NCBI GenBank assembly: GCA_034435575.1
Contig: DAOTXB010000550.1
Location: forward strand, 1-56,629
DNA: 56,629 nt
Direction: 5' to 3'
DNA from: Anaerolineae bacterium
GTDB lineage: Bacteria > Chloroflexota > Anaerolineae > Aggregatilineales > Phototrophicaceae
Position numbers and translations under genes: made by a program. Below are positions 9,895-56,608 of the stretch, in pieces. A model generated the notes under the pieces. It was given only the letters and a program-made list of their open reading frames with translations, was not told where the DNA came from and did not search any database. The stretch's first letter is position 1; each line of letters begins with the position of its first letter.

Positions 9895-11062
9895 AACCGA
9901 ATCGCCATGTCACATTATCCATCGGTAAATCCTGTAAACGACTCTGGCGCAAATTTTCAAAGCGTGGCTTCATTTCCTCGATGCTATCACCACCAAGTTT
10001 TTCTAACAAAGCACCTGCTAGCACCATCGCCAACATCGCCTCCCCCACCGGCACCGCACGCGGAGTTGCACAAAAGTCACTACGTTCATATGTGGTCGCT
10101 TCTGCATCACCCGTTGCCAAGTTCACAGAATCTGCCCCTCGTAACATCGTAGAAATCGGCTTCATCGCCACGCGCACTAATATAGGATCACCAGTTGTAA
10201 TACCGCCCTCCAGCCCACCAGCACGGTTGGTTCGGCGTGTCAGAAATCCATCATCATCTACATCAATCATGTCATGCACCTGGCTACCACGCTTCGTTGC
10301 ATTCTCAAATGCATGACCAATTTCTGCACCTTTCATCGCCTGAATGCTGGTCATCGCTCCGACGATTTTTGCATCTAAGCGACGATCCCAATGTACGTGA
10401 GTACCTAAGCCAGGTGGTACGTTTAACGCAAAAATTTCAAAGATACCCCCTAATGTATCCTTATCAATCTTTGCTTGACGAATTTCTTCATGCATCTGTT
10501 CTGCAATTTCTGTTACTGGACACCGTACATCACTCATTTCGCCGGCTTCATATAAAGCCAAGAAATCTGCTTGATCGTCAACTTCTATCTTAGCGGAACC
10601 GATTTGTACCACGTAGCCGCCAATTTCCATACCGAATTCGGCAAGAAATCTTTTACAAATAGCGCCTACCGCGACACGCATAGTTGTCTCGCGTGCGCTC
10701 GCACGCTCTAACGATAATCGTAGCTCACGATAACCATATTTTACCGCTCCAGTGAGGTCAGCATGTCCGGGTCGCGGTGTCGTAATTGGAACGATGTCCT
10801 TCTCTTTCCAATTTTTGAAATCTCGATTTTCAACCAAAAGTGAAATGGGTCCCCCAGTGGTCAATCCATTCATCAGCCCACTTGTAATACGAATTTTATC
10901 TTTTTCAATCTGCATACGTCCACCAGAACCATACCCCTTCTGCCGACGACGCAGTTCTTTTGTAATATCTTCATCAGTGAGTGCTAAGCCAGCAGGAAAT
11001 CCTTCAAGGATTGCCGTTAACATAGGTCCGTGGCTTTCGCCCGCAGTTAAAAATCGTAGCAT
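9887..11062 (-). CDS. aroC: chorismate synthase
   Basis: 391 aa. Has MLRFLTAGESHGP and RPGHADL. Confidence 0.95.
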   Translation of the reverse strand: MLRFLTAGESHGPMLTAILEGFPAGLALTDEDITKELRRRQKGYGSGGRMQIEKDKIRITSGLMNGLTTGGPISLLVENRDFKNWKEKDIVPITTPRPGHADLTGAVKYGYRELRLSLERASARETTMRVAVGAICKRFLAEFGMEIGGYVVQIGSAKIEVDDQADFLALYEAGEMSDVRCPVTEIAEQMHEEIRQAKIDKDTLGGIFEIFALNVPPGLGTHVHWDRRLDAKIVGAMTSIQAMKGAEIGHAFENATKRGSQVHDMIDVDDDGFLTRRTNRAGGLEGGITTGDPILVRVAMKPISTMLRGADSVNLATGDAEATTYERSDFCATPRAVPVGEAMLAMVLAGALLEKLGGDSIEEMKPRFENLRQSRLQDLPMDNVTWRFGYE

Positions 11063-14619: not shown

Positions 14620-15636
14620 TTAAGCCTTTCGCCCTACTGCCTCCGCAATGAGTTTAATACGATCCATCATGTCTTTGAATCCATCAACACTCAGGCTCTG
14701 GCGACCATCAGACATCGCTTCCTCCGGTGTAGGATGTACCTCGACAATTAGACCGTCGGCACCCGCCGCAACCGCCGCGCGCGATAGCGCCTCAACATAT
14801 TCACGTTTACCCACAGCATGACTCGGATCAGCAACAACAGGTAAATGTGTCAAATGCTTTAAAACCGGAATAGCATTCAGATCAAATGTATTACGGGTAT
14901 ATTTTTCGAATGTGCGGATACCCCGCTCACACAACATTACATTACGATTTCCATGAGAAAGCACATATTCAGCCGCCATCAATAAATCTTCCATCGTACT
15001 GCTCATTCCACGTTTCAATAAAACCGGATGCAAACTTTCACCTGCGGCATTCAGAAGTGCAAAATTTTGCATGTTTCGCGCCCCAATCTGCAATACATCA
15101 GCATATTGTGTGACCAAAGGCACCAATGCAGGGTCCATCACCTCTGTGACGATAGGTAAACCGGTAGCTTCACGCGCCTCAGCTAACCATTGCAGGCCTT
15201 TTTCGCCATGTCCTTGAAAACTATAGGGTGATGTACGTGGTTTGAAAGCCCCACCACGCAATGCAGTCGCGCCTGCTTCCTTCACTGCACATGCTGTTTC
15301 GATAATCATTGAACGGTCTTCGACAGAACATGGACCAGCAATCACCAGGACTTTTTCACCACCCATAATTGAACCGTTCAGAGGCACGTGTGTATCTTGA
15401 GGACGAAATTCACGGCTAGCGAGTTTATATGGCGTAGACACACGTACAACTTTGTACACACCACTCATGATTTCGAATGTATCTTGCTTGAGTACATTAC
15501 TGCTTTCACCAACAATCCCTATAATGGTACGTTCCTCACCCTCAGAAAGATGTGGGATATAGCCTTCATGGTCAATGCGAGAAATCACTTCTGCAACATG
15601 TTTCGCGCTTGCCTGTGGCTTCATTACAACAATCAT
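14620..15636 (-). CDS. aroF: 3-deoxy-7-phosphoheptulonate (DAHP) synthase, type I-beta with an N-terminal ferredoxin/ACT-like domain
   Basis: 338 aa with [16 protein letters not shown]. Has a roughly 70-aa N-terminal extension like the Thermotoga-type enzymes. Confidence 0.9.
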
Positions 15637-16040
15637 ATTTCTTCACTCTCTTTATTTAAAATCATTTTATTCTTTGGGTAAAAAAAATCTGGGCGTAGTT
15701 TTTCCGCTCCATTCATGTACACATGCACAATCTCATCCAGTTTTTTAGCGGTGTTCCAATGTACAAGAATACGGACGCAAAGTTCCAAACCACCGGGTAC
15801 GTCAGACTCAACAGCCCCCATCAACGCCGTATGCTCCCATCCTGCCATACGCGCCGCCTTCGCAGGAAATGCGGCAGTTAAATCAGGAGACGTGGTAAAA
15901 AAAACACTCGCGACGTGTTGCTCTTGAATATCATTCGCATCAATCATTGTTTCCAGAAGCTCCCGGGTGCCCTCAACAATTGCGTCATGGGTGTTCTCAT
16001 CAACAGTGATTGCTCCCCGTACCCCACGCACCAACATCAT
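15633..16040 (-). CDS. aroH: chorismate mutase, AroH class
   Basis: [13 protein letters not shown].. is the classic AroH N-terminus. GAGGAG lies 8 nt upstream of the ATG at 16040. The longer track ORF (to 16121) runs through a terminator hairpin. Confidence 0.88.
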
Positions 16041-16082
16041 ATGCTTGCTCCTCGTATTTCTGTAGCAGTTGCGCTTTAGACA

Positions 16083-16112
16083 AATAAAAAGCGCAGAGCG
16101 GATGCTCTGCGC
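16083..16112 (-). terminator. intrinsic terminator inside the aro leader
   Basis: Minus-strand GCGCAGAGC-AUCC-GCUCUGCGC followed by UUUUUAUUU, about 45 nt upstream of the aroH RBS. Confidence 0.75.
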
Positions 16113-16272
16113 CGACTTCACCGAGTTACTTTACGGTTAACAAATCGTGGAGATAGCACGAACCATCCAAAAACGTCCTATGTCGTTCGTAAAATAATAA
16201 AAGAAATAGGTTGTGTTCGGAACTGTGTTATCAATCACGTTTTGTGCCTTTGCTTTTCAGCGCAGAGCATAC
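16083..16272 (-). promoter_or_regulatory. candidate attenuator/riboswitch-like leader of the aro operon (unclassified, not a T-box)
   Basis: An exact extra copy of the terminator 3' arm (AUGCUCUGCGC, 16270..16260) can pair 11 bp with the terminator 5' arm (16112..16102). Nested helices occur at 16244..16236/16149..16141 and 16190..16185/16163..16158. Confidence 0.5.
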
Positions 16273-16277
16273 TACAG

Positions 16278-16306
16278 ATTATGAGAGCCTGTCAACTTCT
16301 CGTCAA
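16278..16306 (-). promoter_or_regulatory. putative sigma-70-type promoter of the aro leader
   Basis: Minus strand reads TTGACG (16306..16301), 17 nt, CATAAT (16283..16278). An overlapping alternative is TTGACA-18-TATGCT. Confidence 0.45.
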
Positions 16307-16358
16307 AATCACCGACATATCCATTGAATTTCGTACAATCTGCCTAATAGTTCTATGG

Positions 16359-17168
16359 TTAATTGTCTAAAGCAGATCGCAAAGATAAGGCTAATTCCTC
16401 AACATGATTTATACTTTGGGCACCCGCCTTTACAAGCGCACTACCCACAATAAACCCGTTGACCAGACCAGTCATCATTTGTGCATGTTCAGGTTTACTA
16501 ATGCCAAATCCCATCACAAGTGGTTGATCTGTTTCTTTGCGTAGACGCGCAATGAATTCTGCTAGATAATCTGGCAACTCGGTACGTTCACCCGTGATTC
16601 CTGTCAACGTTACGACGTAGATAAATCCACGTGCATGTTCGGCAACCAGCTTTATCCGCTTCGGGTTACTTGTCGGCGCGAGGAAGAAAACTAGCGCCAT
16701 GCCCGTTTCATCGCACGCGTCTGCAAACATATGCGCTTCTTCCGCCGGCAAATCAGGAATAATTAATCCGTCAGCGCCCGCTTCCCTAGCATCATGCACA
16801 AATTTTTCTGTACCATAGGCGACAAGAGGATTTAGATAACTAAACATCATCAATGGTTGTGTAACCCCACGTTCACGTAAGGTTTTTACCGCTTCAAGTG
16901 TTTTTGTCACCGTAATACCATTATCAAGCGCAACCTGTGTTGCCGCTTGAATTGTAGGTCCATCAGCAAGTGGATCACTAAAGGGTACGCCAATCTCAAA
17001 TCCATCTACACCAACACCCGCCATCCGTTCAATTGCGTCTAACGAAGCGTCATATGTCGGGTAACCAATCGGGTAATATGGCATAAACGCCGCCCTACCC
17101 TGTGCTTCAGTCGTTTTAAATACCTCATCAAGCGATTCAACGCCAGTTTTTTTCCGCATATTATTCAT
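16359..17168 (-). CDS. trpA: tryptophan synthase alpha chain
   Basis: 269 aa with GVPFSDPLADGPTIQ. Confidence 0.93.
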   Translation of the reverse strand: MNNMRKKTGVESLDEVFKTTEAQGRAAFMPYYPIGYPTYDASLDAIERMAGVGVDGFEIGVPFSDPLADGPTIQAATQVALDNGITVTKTLEAVKTLRERGVTQPLMMFSYLNPLVAYGTEKFVHDAREAGADGLIIPDLPAEEAHMFADACDETGMALVFFLAPTSNPKRIKLVAEHARGFIYVVTLTGITGERTELPDYLAEFIARLRKETDQPLVMGFGISKPEHAQMMTGLVNGFIVGSALVKAGAQSINHVEELALSLRSALDN

Positions 17169-27287: not shown

Positions 27288-27329
27288 TATAAAAACAAAA
27301 ACCCAACTCATCCACAAGGACGAGATGGG
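27288..27329 (-). terminator. T-box leader terminator
   Basis: Minus-strand CCCAUCUCGUCC..GGAUGAGUUGGG (12-bp stem with one mismatch and one G-U) followed by UUUUUGUUUUU. Confidence 0.8.
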
Positions 27330-27598
27330 AAATCTCGCGGTGCCACCTTGTTTCGGCAAAGGAACAACCTTTACCGCACTCAGTAGGGTACAGAATTATT
27401 TCGATACCCCGCGCTATGATAACGGTGCGCGTCCGTCACAGACTACTTAGAATTATCCTTTCGTCCATGCAACTCCCCAGCCCATTCTTCACCCCTGAGT
27501 GTATCGTCTTCACAGCAAGCGACGACTCTCTGAACACCATGGCGAGTAAATACTCTTCTGGATCAACGTTTTTAGCAATTATTGATTTGTCATTAACT
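27288..27598 (-). promoter_or_regulatory. T-box riboswitch, Trp specifier (UGG)
   Basis: Minus strand shows an AGAGAG bulge (27531..27526). The specifier-loop context GAAGAAUGGG has UGG at 27484..27482. The T-box sequence AAGGUGGCACCGCGAG lies at 27350..27334, immediately 5' of the terminator. Confidence 0.8.
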
Positions 27599-38270: not shown

Positions 38271-38448
38271 AAAAGACCCGCCATGCCGTTTGCCGCATTG
38301 TTTTGAACCTGCTTTCGCAGGTGGGTAACCTATCAACTATATCAGTCTTGACCAGCGCAGGTCTATCACGTCCACAGCCGACCCCGGTTGCCCGTTTTTA
38401 GGGTGTTGGCTCAAAACTAGTCGCGTCATGACGCACACGGCAGGATAT
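38225..38448 (-). ncRNA. candidate unclassified structured small RNA
   Basis: Minus-strand promoter TTTACA (38482..38477), 17 nt, TATAAC (38459..38454). A 5'/3' closing helix pairs CCAU..GCCGU with ACGGCAUGG. There is a GNRA hairpin ACCUGC-GAAA-GCAGGU, and the strong terminator lies at 38256..38222. No credible ORF. Confidence 0.4.
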
Positions 38449-38618
38449 GGCTAGTTATAGCAAAGCACCCTCACCATGTAAACCCCTAGTTGCGTAAATA
38501 ATGACAAAAATAAGGGTGAAATAAGATATTGCTCCTTTTTTGAAACAATCTACTATTTTTGGCAATCACAGCATATTATCAATTGCAATAACCAAGCACA
38601 CGATTGGAGAAATAAAAA

Positions 38619-39380: not shown

Positions 39381-41213
39381 TTATTCCTCATCATCTTCCG
39401 GTTCATAGGTGCTGGCAATATACAAATCCTCAAGCTGACCGGGTTCCGGTAAAGACGGTGCGTGCGCCATCGCATCTGCGCCGGTTTGTGTCTTCGGGAA
39501 GGCAATCACCTCACGGATATTGGGCGCACCAGCGTACAACATTGCAAGTCGATCAATTCCCCACGCAATCCCACCATGTGGCGGAACACCATACTCAAAT
39601 GCCTCAAGAATATGCCCAAATTGTTCCATAGCATGTTCCATCGTCTGACCAATAAGCGGAAAGATTTTTTCTTGCAACTCCCGCGAGTGGATACGTATAC
39701 TACCACCAGCTATTTCGTAACCATTGCAGACAAGATCATATTGTGATCCGCGTGCCTTACCGGGGTCACTATCCAGCAAGTGAACATCTTCTGGCAAAGG
39801 CATCGTAAACATATGCTGTGATGGGTCCCATCGCTGATTTTCTTCGTCCCAATAAAACTCCGGGAAATCAATAACCCACGCGAATGCCAACATATTCGGG
39901 TCTGCAAGATCAAGTAATCCGGCGATATGACGACGCAATTTATCGACCACGGCATAAACAACATCATCTTCATCAGTGGTAAACAATAGAACATCGCCAG
40001 GTTCGGCTTCGGTGGTTTGGAACAATTCCATCTTTTGATCTACTGTAAAGAATTTGCCAATGGGTCCTTTTACTTCGGCTTCTTCATCAAGCGGAAGCGC
40101 CATCCATGCAAGCCCTTTAGCTTTTGCCTCAGCTTTCACAAGGTCTTCAAGGCTTTTCATCAGCTTTTTGAGTTTTTCACCGCTTAATGTTTTCTCTAGT
40201 TGCTCAGGGTTACGATACAAACCCGGTGCGCGGATCACCTTAACCATTTTACCCGCTTCAACATTTTTATTGAACACGACGAAACCGCTTTTGCCTGCAA
40301 GTTCGGTCACATCAATTGCTTCCAAGCCATAGCGTAAATCTGGCTTATCAGATCCATATTTCTCCATCGCATCTTTGTATGTTAGGCGCTGGAAGGGTCG
40401 TGATAGCAATTGCTTCTCCGGTACAATTTCATCAGAAAGTGCAATCGCCAATTGTTCATTGAGTTGCATGACATCTTCGCGCTCAACAAAACTAATTTCC
40501 ATGTCAAGCTGTGTAAATTCTGGCTGACGTTCGCCCCGAAGATCCTCATCGCGGAAGCACCGCGCAATCTGGAAATATTTCTCGTACCCGGCAACCATCA
40601 ATAATTGTTTCAGTTGTTGTGGGCTTTGTGGCAACGCATAAAACTTACCCGGTTGAAGGCGACTTGGCACCAGAAAATCACGCGCGCCTTCCGGTGTCGT
40701 CTTGAAGAGAATCGGCGTTTCAATTTCTACAAAATCCTCTTTATCCAAAAAATCACGGATAAATTTAATCACTTTGTGACGTGTGATAATGTTATGTTGC
40801 ATCTGTGGACGACGCAGATCTAAATATCGATACTGCATTCGGCGATATTCATCCGTGTTTTCTTCTTTATTGATTGTAATTGCCGGTGTCTTGGATGCAT
40901 TCAAAATCTCAATCTGTGTGCCGACAACGTCAATCGCTCCTGTTGGCAAATCGTTATTCTCTGTACCTTCAGGACGATTACGTACCTCGCCAGAGATAAG
41001 CACGACATATTCATTACGAATTGAACTCGCAATTGCGTGTGCTTCAGCGGCGGTCTCCTCATCTACAACCACCTGAGTCAATCCCCAGCGGTCGCGCAAA
41101 TCAATGAAGATCAAACCACCCTGATCTCGGCGACGATTCACCCAGCCAGCTAAAGTTACAGTTTCGCCGACATGTGATGCACGTAATTCGCCGCACGTAT
41201 GGGTTTTCATCAT
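39381..41213 (-). CDS. aspS: aspartate--tRNA ligase (bacterial type)
   Basis: 610 aa. Has class II motifs FRDEDLRGERQPEFTQLD and GGSIRIH, and GIDRLAML. Confidence 0.96.
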   Translation of the reverse strand: MMKTHTCGELRASHVGETVTLAGWVNRRRDQGGLIFIDLRDRWGLTQVVVDEETAAEAHAIASSIRNEYVVLISGEVRNRPEGTENNDLPTGAIDVVGTQIEILNASKTPAITINKEENTDEYRRMQYRYLDLRRPQMQHNIITRHKVIKFIRDFLDKEDFVEIETPILFKTTPEGARDFLVPSRLQPGKFYALPQSPQQLKQLLMVAGYEKYFQIARCFRDEDLRGERQPEFTQLDMEISFVEREDVMQLNEQLAIALSDEIVPEKQLLSRPFQRLTYKDAMEKYGSDKPDLRYGLEAIDVTELAGKSGFVVFNKNVEAGKMVKVIRAPGLYRNPEQLEKTLSGEKLKKLMKSLEDLVKAEAKAKGLAWMALPLDEEAEVKGPIGKFFTVDQKMELFQTTEAEPGDVLLFTTDEDDVVYAVVDKLRRHIAGLLDLADPNMLAFAWVIDFPEFYWDEENQRWDPSQHMFTMPLPEDVHLLDSDPGKARGSQYDLVCNGYEIAGGSIRIHSRELQEKIFPLIGQTMEHAMEQFGHILEAFEYGVPPHGGIAWGIDRLAMLYAGAPNIREVIAFPKTQTGADAMAHAPSLPEPGQLEDLYIASTYEPEDDEE

Positions 41214-56451: not shown

Positions 56452-56525
56452 TGGTGATGGGTGGGCTCGAACCACCGACCTCACGATTATGAGTCGTGCG
56501 CTCTTACCAGCTGAGCTACATCACC
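56452..56525 (-). tRNA. tRNA with CAU anticodon, elongator type (Met, or Ile2 if lysidine-modified)
   Basis: The cloverleaf folds by hand: acceptor GGUGAUG/CAUCACC, D stem GCUC/GAGC (Y11:R24), anticodon stem CACGA/UCGUG with loop CUCAUAA, T stem GGUGG/CCACC. CCA is not encoded. Confidence 0.9.
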
Positions 56526-56536
56526 TCAAAAAAAAG

Positions 56537-56608
56537 TCGCGGAGGGTGGATTCGAACCACCGACCTTCAGGTTATGAGCCTGACGAGCTGCCTCTGCTCT
56601 ACTCCGCA
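56537..56608 (-). tRNA. tRNA-fMet-like initiator tRNA (CAU)
   Basis: Acceptor UGCGGAG/CUCCGCG with a weak U1-G72 pair, D stem GAGC/GCUC (A11:U24, an initiator hallmark), and anticodon stem UCAGG/CCUGA with loop CUCAUAA. Close by eye to E. coli tRNA-fMet. CCA is not encoded. Confidence 0.8.

Follow-up and report, generated by a model that had tools for sequence, protein, structure and literature searches.

A putative Tyr/Phe leader-peptide attenuator upstream of aroH in Chloroflexota

We analyzed contig DAOTXB010000550.1 of an Anaerolineae bacterium over its full 56,629 nucleotides (nt), referred to here as the window, and asked how aroH and the genes that follow it are controlled. On the minus strand, an intergenic gap of 318 nt between the trpA stop codon at 16359 and the aroH ATG at 16040 contains a GC-rich hairpin with a U-tract shortly before aroH. 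A preliminary description, made from the sequence alone, had placed this hairpin in a terminator/antiterminator leader with its own promoter and had proposed an orphan riboswitch. The leader and its control over aroH and the following genes stand. The leader is, however, very probably a ribosome-mediated transcription attenuator with a leader peptide, which would sense charged tRNA-Tyr and tRNA-Phe. It shows the features of this class: an open reading frame (ORF) after a promoter, a cluster of pathway codons, a terminator before the first gene, and an antiterminator helix (regions 2 and 3, or 2:3) sharing a strand with the terminator. The family to which it belongs was previously uncatalogued but is ordinary in kind and not a new riboswitch.

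An open reading frame with a run of aromatic codons

The leader ORF (Table 1) encodes the peptide M-IDNTVPNTT-YFFYYF-TNDIGRFWMVRAISTIC, in blocks M IDNTVPNTT YFFYYF TNDIGRFW MVRAISTIC. With one TTT and one TGG after the run of six aromatic codons, it contains 3 Tyr, 4 Phe, and 1 Trp codon in total. On both strands of the 56.6-kb window, YFFYYF is the sole place at which six of six consecutive codons are aromatic. Five of six are found elsewhere at 10914..10931 and, on the plus strand, at 40068 and 53850; the first of these was rejected as a second aromatic leader, as it lies out of frame within aroC. The earlier statement that the two mini-ORFs of the region lack aromatic codons was misleading, as one of them, MVRAISTIC, represents the last nine residues of the GTG-initiated 33-codon ORF with YFFYYF. 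The ORF had been missed because only ATG starts were considered. ATG-only searches for mini-ORFs can make an ordinary attenuator look like an orphan riboswitch.

A scan for AroH covering one genome per species yielded 46 loci, and in 29 of these the same leader precedes aroH. All 29 belong to Chloroflexota outside the Dehalococcoidia or to similar-looking bins, and they include Anaerolineae, Phototrophicaceae, and a Roseiflexus. Five closer relatives from metagenomes (70 to 78% AroH identity) also carry the leader, and with the few new cases from a further metagenome scan (21 loci) the total is 41 Chloroflexota loci. Promoter, short ORF with a Tyr/Phe run, stop codon before the stem, and terminator form the common architecture. 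An upstream start codon in the aromatic frame is present in 39 of the 41 relatives, and the stop codon of this frame always lies 5′ of the terminator stem, 19 to 44 nt ahead of it where measured in frame. When a start codon, a Shine-Dalgarno (SD)-like site, and a stop before the terminator were required together, 23 of the 41 leaders passed in the aromatic frame, compared to 3 and 0 in the other two frames. Tyr-Tyr is retained in 35 of 39 distinct relatives while both synonymous codons are in use across the leaders (TAT 99, TAC 47, TTT 63, and TTC 42 times), as would be expected if selection acts on the encoded residues.

The ORF is preceded by a sigma-70-type promoter, TTGACA-18-TATGCT, which had been mentioned earlier as a caveat and which proved to be conserved across the family. 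Among 28 aligned relatives, 22 have TTGAC(A/G)-17/18-TAnnnT at a distance of 85 to 92 nt 5′ of the aromatic codons, and from the position of the promoter in the window transcription is predicted to start at about 16259 to 16257. The promoter originally favored, TTGACG-17-CATAAT (16306..16278), is present as described and overlaps the conserved one. It is confined to the window and is not conserved in the closest relatives L047 to L051 or in L001 (alignment A2). It was rejected as the family promoter, since it is absent even from relatives with 78% AroH identity. A second TTGAC(G/A)-like box 11 to 14 nt 5′ of the conserved -35 hexamer occurs in the window (16290..16306), L001, and L051, with a plausible -10 hexamer (CATAAT) in the window only; this box might act as an UP-like element or bind a factor.

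The motif (A/G)CAUAG is near-invariant 4 to 5 codons past the Tyr run, at 16177..16182 in the window and at the same place in almost all relatives. Read in the Tyr frame, the motif provides AUA, an often rare Ile codon, and in the +1 frame a TAG stop codon. It is also complementary to the CUAU of the Tyr codons, with which it may form a small hairpin around the stall site, and its conservation can be attributed to the RNA level because of this complementarity. Since CATAG gives an in-frame TAG in most members, 55 to 66 nt before the terminator, one could suppose that the +1 frame is the regulatory one, that the run is read there as ATT ATT (Ile-Ile), and that the leader is an isoleucine sensor ending at this TAG. 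Yet that frame offers a start codon with an SD-like site in only 3 of 41 leaders, whereas the Tyr frame does so in 23 of 41. The ATG conserved among Phototrophicaceae-type leaders likewise belongs to the Tyr frame, and the regulated genes serve aromatic amino acid synthesis. We attach almost no probability to an isoleucine sensor. The other frames of the TATTATTAC run, read as Ile or Leu, were likewise rejected on start codon, SD sequence, and gene context. For annotation, the signature of the Tyr/Phe leader comprises TTGACA-18-TAnnnT, a short ORF with YY(Y/F), CAUAG, and a GC-rich terminator with a loop complementary to the end of the ORF.

Two groups of leaders deserve separate mention. The Roseiflexus-type leaders L012, L055, and L056 add Trp codons to the run (AYFFWFWYF, YFWFGYFY), and judging from these codons the attenuator may read all three aromatic amino acids in these genomes. 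L003/L053 lies on a contig labeled as a Pleurocapsa minor metagenome-assembled genome, that is, a cyanobacterium-labeled bin with a Chloroflexota-type aroH leader, whose AroH is ~61% identical to that of the window; this contig may be mis-binned Chloroflexota.

Alternative pairings of the leader RNA

The terminator hairpin with its U-tract, GGCGCAGAGC-AUCC-GCUCUGCGCU plus UUUUUAUUU, was confirmed with 10 pairs. In an alignment of 28 leader sequences, RNAalifold gave a terminator consensus of 11 pairs, 6 of which show compensatory double changes, but no conserved helix upstream of the terminator, where helices change register between lineages. Comparison of the aroH upstream regions of relatives, as suggested in the preliminary description, thus revealed a conserved leader and a covarying terminator, but no conserved helix that an aptamer would need.

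As trpA ends 246 nt 5′ of the hairpin and no terminator was found between the trpA stop codon (16359) and the leader, the hairpin might be regarded as the plain terminator of the trp operon, with an unrelated promoter nearby and a fortuitous ORF with fortuitous aromatic codons. The promoter, however, stands upstream of the terminator, and its transcripts must therefore traverse it. Loci with a divergent or unrelated upstream gene (L002, L003, L006, L050, and L051) carry the leader as well, and the ORF, its codon run, its stop position, and the 2:3 pairing are maintained over the 41 loci. A simple end-of-trp terminator, which had already been doubted, can practically be dismissed.

The conserved antiterminator strand, region 2 (GGAUGGUUCGUGC), is located inside the ORF and can pair with region 3 (GGCGCAGAGCAUCC, 16113..16100), which consists of the 5′ arm and the loop of the terminator. 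In the window, 11 of 13 positions pair, with two mismatches and about -15.9 kcal/mol; the helix has 12 pairs if U16155-G16113 is counted. In L048, one of the closest relatives, the ORF-internal GGAUGUUUUGUGCU pairs perfectly (14 of 14 base pairs [bp], -22.2 kcal/mol) with the 5′ arm and tetraloop AGCGCAGAGCAUCC, and in L012 all 13 of 13 bp are formed (-20.1 kcal/mol) despite a different arm, GGCGUGGAGC. An equivalent of the 2:3 pairing exists in essentially every leader-bearing member, although its strength is uneven. Across lineages, the terminator loop and region 2 covary (AUCC/GGAU, AAC(A)/GUU, AGCA/UGCU, and GAAA/UUUC).

Counting 2:3 pairs column by column on alignment A1 was dropped. Because the MAFFT columns for the loop and region 2 lack a common register, a register-free duplex permutation over 24 distinct arm-plus-loop types was used. 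Pairing of region 2 with the leader's own terminator averaged -15.0 kcal/mol, compared to -13.4 kcal/mol with foreign terminators, and an equally low value was reached in 1 of 20000 type-level permutations. The window itself gave -15.8 kcal/mol with its own terminator and -11.1 kcal/mol with foreign ones, with 1 of 23 foreign types equally good.

Region 2 is also part of a long imperfect leader hairpin. In the minimum free energy (MFE) fold of the window, 16245..16215 pairs with 16172..16140 around the codon run, and the corresponding helix (1:2) differs between lineages. Its 5′ strand, region 1, extends across the GTG start codon up to a point shortly before the Tyr/Phe run; in these folds it would act as an anti-antiterminator. 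When RNA initiated at the conserved promoter was folded up to the 3′ arm of the terminator and without a ribosome, the 2:3 state was 1.5 kcal/mol above the leader-hairpin state, and melting of the hairpin would therefore tip the balance.

We propose the following course of events. Transcription would start at the conserved promoter (~16258), and a ribosome would load at AAAGG/GTG (16238) and translate the 33-codon leader. If Tyr or Phe is scarce, the ribosome would stall on 16208..16191 and cover or separate region 1, so that the freed region 2 (16168..16156) could capture region 3 (16113..16100) as soon as it is made. With 2:3 formed, the terminator would not form and RNA polymerase would read into aroH, aroF, tyrA, aroA, aroE, and beyond. 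If Tyr and Phe are plentiful, the ribosome would pass region 2 and reach the UAA at 16139, with region 2 either occluded or paired again with region 1; region 3 would then pair with region 4 (16099..16090), and transcription would end in the U-tract (16090..16082). The kinetic order of these foldings is assumed.

Several observations weigh against this attenuator model. The crude SD test was passed by just 23 of the 41 leaders, and lineages with AAAC and GAAA loops have a weak 2:3 pairing (about -10 to -12.5 kcal/mol) that is no better than that with foreign terminators. In the window itself, the 2:3 helix with its two mismatches is weaker (-15.9 kcal/mol) than the terminator (-18.8 kcal/mol). 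Equilibrium folding with a masked ribosome footprint, at either the stall site or the stop codon, left the terminator unmelted, with a probability of ~1 in almost all sequences, and we therefore assume that the switch must be kinetic, as in the Escherichia coli trp attenuator. When RNAs were folded up to the loop, masking of a ribosome footprint raised the mean pairing of region 3 from 0.56 to 0.60, with higher values in 28 of 41 leaders, which is a small and noisy effect. In the window, the leader stop codon lies 17 nt past region 2, and a terminating ribosome would therefore occlude region 2 only partly. Finally, the model leaves unexplained why the -10 hexamer and discriminator of the promoter are complementary to the terminator arm.

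In L019 and L027, a transcribed segment at the 5′ end of the leader, GGUGCUGAG, overlaps the SD sequence and pairs over 9 bp with the 3′ arm of the terminator, which lowers the terminator probability to 0.04 to 0.37 in equilibrium folds. According to these folds, it may serve in this lineage as a different antiterminator that is sensitive to translation initiation.

Searches of Rfam 15 gave no relevant match to the leader region, neither in a scan of the whole window at the gathering thresholds nor in one of the region at E <= 10, and none in 13 homologous loci. The best matches at E <= 10 were unrelated small-RNA models on the terminator hairpin (SorY, 19.1 bits compared to a gathering threshold of 111), and none of the curated amino acid leader families (Trp, His, Leu, Thr, and Phe) was listed at this threshold. 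A T-box had been excluded earlier, and in line with this no T-box was matched in 15900..16500, whether the gathering threshold or E <= 10 was applied. TRAP leaders have 9 to 11 (G/U)AG triplets with a spacing of 2 to 3 nt that overlap the antiterminator; the 260 nt of the leader contain five scattered (G/U)AG triplets and no run of at least four suitably spaced ones, in line with the earlier reading.

Table 1. Features of the aroH leader region of the window
Feature	Position	Strand	Remarks
Second promoter-like site TTGACG-17-CATAAT	16306..16278	minus	Promoter scan, 10/12 consensus positions; overlaps the conserved promoter
Family-conserved sigma-70-type promoter TTGACA-18-TATGCT	16295..16266	minus	Promoter scan, 10/12 consensus positions
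-35 hexamer TTGACA	16295..16290	minus	Followed by an 18-nt spacer
-10 hexamer TATGCT	16271..16266	minus	
5′ copy AUGCUCUGCGCUGA	16270..16257	minus	3′ half of the -10 hexamer plus discriminator; 13/14 complementary to 16115..16102
SD-like site AAAGG	16251..16247	minus	8 nt 5′ of the GTG start; similar purine-rich sites in relatives, e.g., AGGAG in L048
Region 1 (ACAAA-CGUG-GAUA-CAC-UCCGAA)	16245..16215	minus	5′ strand of the long imperfect leader hairpin; MFE folds
Leader peptide ORF	16238..16137	minus	GTG 16238..16236; 33 codons; stop TAA 16139..16137
Codon run TAT TTC TTT TAT TAT TTT (Tyr Phe Phe Tyr Tyr Phe)	16208..16191	minus	Proposed ribosome stalling site
3′ strand of the leader hairpin	16172..16140	minus	Contains region 2; MFE folds
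Region 2 GGAUGGUUCGUGC	16168..16156	minus	Conserved antiterminator strand inside the ORF; pairs with region 3
Terminator GGCGCAGAGC-AUCC-GCUCUGCGCU plus UUUUUAUUU	16113..16082	minus	10 pairs, GC-rich, -18.8 kcal/mol
Region 3, 5′ arm GGCGCAGAGC plus loop AUCC	16113..16100	minus	Common to terminator and antiterminator
Region 4, 3′ arm GCUCUGCGCU	16099..16090	minus	
U-tract UUUUUAUUU (with region 4)	16090..16082	minus	
aroH SD sequence GAGGAG	16053..16048	minus	Before ATG 16040
aroH, AroH-type chorismate mutase	16040 (ATG) to 15633 (stop)	minus	Feature 15633..16053; NCBIfam TIGR01796, 130.5 bits

Complementarity between promoter and terminator arm

The only unusual residue of the locus is that promoter and terminator arm are complementary to each other. 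The copy of the terminator 3′ arm noted in the preliminary description is present at 16270..16257. It repeats 10 nt of the 3′ arm exactly in direct orientation and forms, together with 16115..16102, a 14-nt inverted repeat with 93% complementarity. The duplex of this 5′ copy with the terminator 5′ arm (P1) has 13 to 14 bp and -25 to -26 kcal/mol.

From P1, the preliminary description had derived an orphan riboswitch, in which P1 closes an aptamer (16270..16102) and a ligand stabilizes P1 and causes read-through. RNA starting at about 16272 indeed contains the long-range P1 together with nested helices in its MFE fold (z = -2.9, and z = -4.8 without the 3′ arm), and no known RNA family matches. 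The nested helix CAAAACGUG/CACGAUUUG is part of that fold, whereas ACGAAC/GUUCGU is present in the sequence but is not used. The riboswitch is nevertheless highly improbable. What is conserved in the interior is an ORF with an aromatic run, whose synonymous variation has a three-base period, rather than a structured core. RNAalifold detects no conserved helix 5′ of the terminator, and the conserved antiterminator that covaries with the terminator loop is a different one, the ORF-internal region 2. Most lineages with the leader lack the P1 complementarity. Moreover, the start predicted from the conserved promoter is downstream of the 5′ strand of P1: this strand forms the -10 hexamer and discriminator of that promoter, whose RNA therefore lacks the 5′ copy, and scarcely any P1-paired base is 3′ of the predicted +1. 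The preliminary description had named a mapped start downstream of 16260 as a refutation of its reading, and by this measure the comparative evidence speaks against P1 in the main transcript.

Thus, P1 appears physically plausible only for RNA that starts further upstream, as judged from the folding models. RNAs with 5′ ends at 16400, 16330, or 16271 adopt P1 as their MFE state before the 3′ arm is made, and at full length their P1 state lies within 0.8 to 1.9 kcal/mol of the terminator state. The predicted start of TTGACG-17-CATAAT at about 16271 would place the 5′ copy at the extreme 5′ end of the RNA. In the lineage of the window (the window itself, L001 to L006, and L047 to L053), every member has a -10/discriminator segment complementary to the 5′ arm, with -14 to -25 kcal/mol and at most 4 of 300 shuffles as good, and L005 shows one double compensatory change in this pairing. 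The complementarity is absent from other lineages with the same leader. In modeled read-through RNAs, P1 is dominant in the window, L048/L049, L001, and L052, where trpA lies directly upstream, and in L051.

These data raise the possibility of a second input that would be added to the Tyr/Phe attenuator and not replace it. RNA arriving from upstream, either by read-through of the trp operon that is controlled by a Trp T-box and ends in trpA or from the window-specific TTGACG-17-CATAAT, would carry the 5′ copy and bypass the Tyr/Phe attenuator via P1, while promoter-initiated RNA would remain under Tyr/Phe control. In the window and its close relatives, the -10 hexamer and discriminator would then also serve as a second antiterminator strand. 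Such an arrangement would agree with the strength of P1 and its prevalence before synthesis of the 3′ arm, its dominance in the read-through RNAs named above, the T-box with an apparent UGG specifier upstream of trpE, the absence of a terminator between the trpA stop at 16359 and the leader, and the lineage-wide complementarity with the double change in L005. On the other hand, the promoter itself uses the complementary segment as its -10 hexamer and discriminator, and promoter function alone may conserve it. Complementarity is also seen in L002, L003, and L050, whose divergent upstream gene makes read-through impossible. P1 is not dominant in L047 and L005 although trpA lies upstream, and with longer upstream context the full-length MFE fold retains the terminator. 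L008, from another lineage with trpA upstream, lacks the complementarity, only the window has the second promoter-like site, and the independent observations are few because the sequences are related to each other. We consider the second input unlikely, though clearly less so than the riboswitch. If it is real, Trp starvation would also raise the enzymes of the common pathway, and a functional complementarity between promoter and terminator would represent a new way to couple two attenuation systems in series.

The aromatic supra-operon and comparison with known systems

The first gene 3′ of the leader, aroH, is followed by aroF, tyrA, aroA, aroE, a gene whose product is GNAT-like by sequence, and aroC, which was called from the beginning of its product, resembling chorismate synthase; two further ORFs of 168 and 348 amino acids come after the aroC-like gene. 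The aroH-aroE block codes for chorismate mutase, 3-deoxy-D-arabino-heptulosonate 7-phosphate (DAHP) synthase, prephenate dehydrogenase, 5-enolpyruvylshikimate 3-phosphate synthase, and shikimate dehydrogenase. The aroH-led genes thus represent the Tyr branch and the common aromatic pathway.

Together with the trp genes they form an aromatic supra-operon on one strand of the contig (8354..27575, minus strand), with the trp part preceding the aro part. The trp part consists, in this order, of the T-box, trpE, a histidine-phosphatase-family gene, trpG, trpD, trpC, a B3_4-domain gene, trpF, an unknown gene, trpB, a SnoaL-like gene, an alpha/beta hydrolase gene, another unknown gene, and trpA, after which the Tyr/Phe leader follows; several non-trp genes are thus interspersed among the trp genes. 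The T-box heading trpE (27313..27575, minus strand, ~11 kb upstream of the leader) is genuine, with 129.8 bits in the Rfam scan. The wiring suggested for the aromatic supra-operon of Chloroflexota (Anaerolineae and Roseiflexus-type) is therefore a Trp T-box at the head of the trp genes and a Tyr/Phe attenuator at the head of aroH-aroF-tyrA-aroA-aroE-aroC and further genes.

To our knowledge, leader-peptide attenuation is little documented in Chloroflexota, and a literature search of incomplete coverage retrieved no description of an aromatic leader peptide from this phylum. The family described here adds at least 41 examples that are missing from Rfam 15. Well-known leader-peptide attenuators are pheL-pheA, pheM-pheST, trpL, and hisL of E. 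coli. The aroH leader shares with them a short leader with codons for the end products, an intrinsic terminator before the first structural gene, and, in the mechanism proposed here, mutually exclusive 1:2, 2:3, and 3:4 pairings that would be read by the position of the ribosome. It differs from them in lacking similarity in sequence or at the level of covariance models (no Rfam family at E <= 10 beyond terminator-like noise), in its greater length (33 codons in the window), and in a Tyr-dominated, mixed Tyr/Phe run to which Trp is added in the Roseiflexus-type leaders. Further differences are an antiterminator strand that pairs with the loop and the 5′ arm of the terminator, the phylum, and the operon, which comprises aroH, aroF, tyrA, aroA, aroE, and further genes.

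Closer in function is the aroR leader peptide upstream of aroF of Corynebacterium glutamicum (Neshat et al. 2014), which contains only Phe-Tyr-Phe and for which a response to Phe, but not to Tyr, is reported (summarized in PMC11802643). aroR is likewise a mixed Phe/Tyr leader-peptide attenuator of a DAHP synthase operon. The window differs from it by its 3 Tyr, 4 Phe, and 1 Trp codons, six of them consecutive, by an unrelated sequence from a different phylum, and by an operon with tyrA and an AroH-type chorismate mutase. The Acholeplasma motif uORFC-13-1 upstream of aroF was proposed as a candidate upstream-ORF attenuator by comparative analysis only (PMC8632094). Like the aroH leader, it is placed just 5′ of an intrinsic terminator, in its case ahead of aroF, but it centers on a conserved Phe, occurs in Mollicutes, and has a different consensus (PMC8632094).

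The aromatic supra-operon of Bacillus subtilis, aroFBH-trpEDCFBA-hisC-tyrA-aroE, is controlled by a TRAP attenuator. As in that operon, trp and aro genes of the window lie on one strand with an internal attenuator, and upstream transcripts therefore meet a second regulatory terminator. In the window, however, the internal control is a leader peptide and not TRAP or a T-box, and the order is reversed, with trp before aro. The ON riboswitches of the pbuE adenine type, in which the 3′ strand of P1 overlaps the terminator 5′ arm, follow the logic that the preliminary description had proposed. Unlike these, the aroH leader lacks a conserved aptamer core, its long-range helix takes the 5′ strand from promoter DNA in the layout common to the family, and the sensor would be a ribosome on Tyr/Phe codons.

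Some further sequence features of the locus were noted. A 15-nt inverted repeat with 14 of 15 positions matching (16359..16373 and 16073..16087) encloses the whole leader: the last trpA codons, GCUUUAGACAAUUAA, are complementary to UUAUUUGUCUAAAGC, which comes directly after the U-tract of the attenuator. In L047 and L048, the A/U-rich core alone of this repeat is retained. The ribosome-binding region of aroH, UACGAGGAGCAAGCA (16042..16056), recurs with 87% identity in the first aroH codons as UACGGGGAGCAAUCA (16007..16021), probably by chance. On the minus strand, the Rfam scan also detected 6S RNA (84.5 bits) and two tRNA genes, at 38271..38449 and 56452..56608, which are unrelated to the leader.

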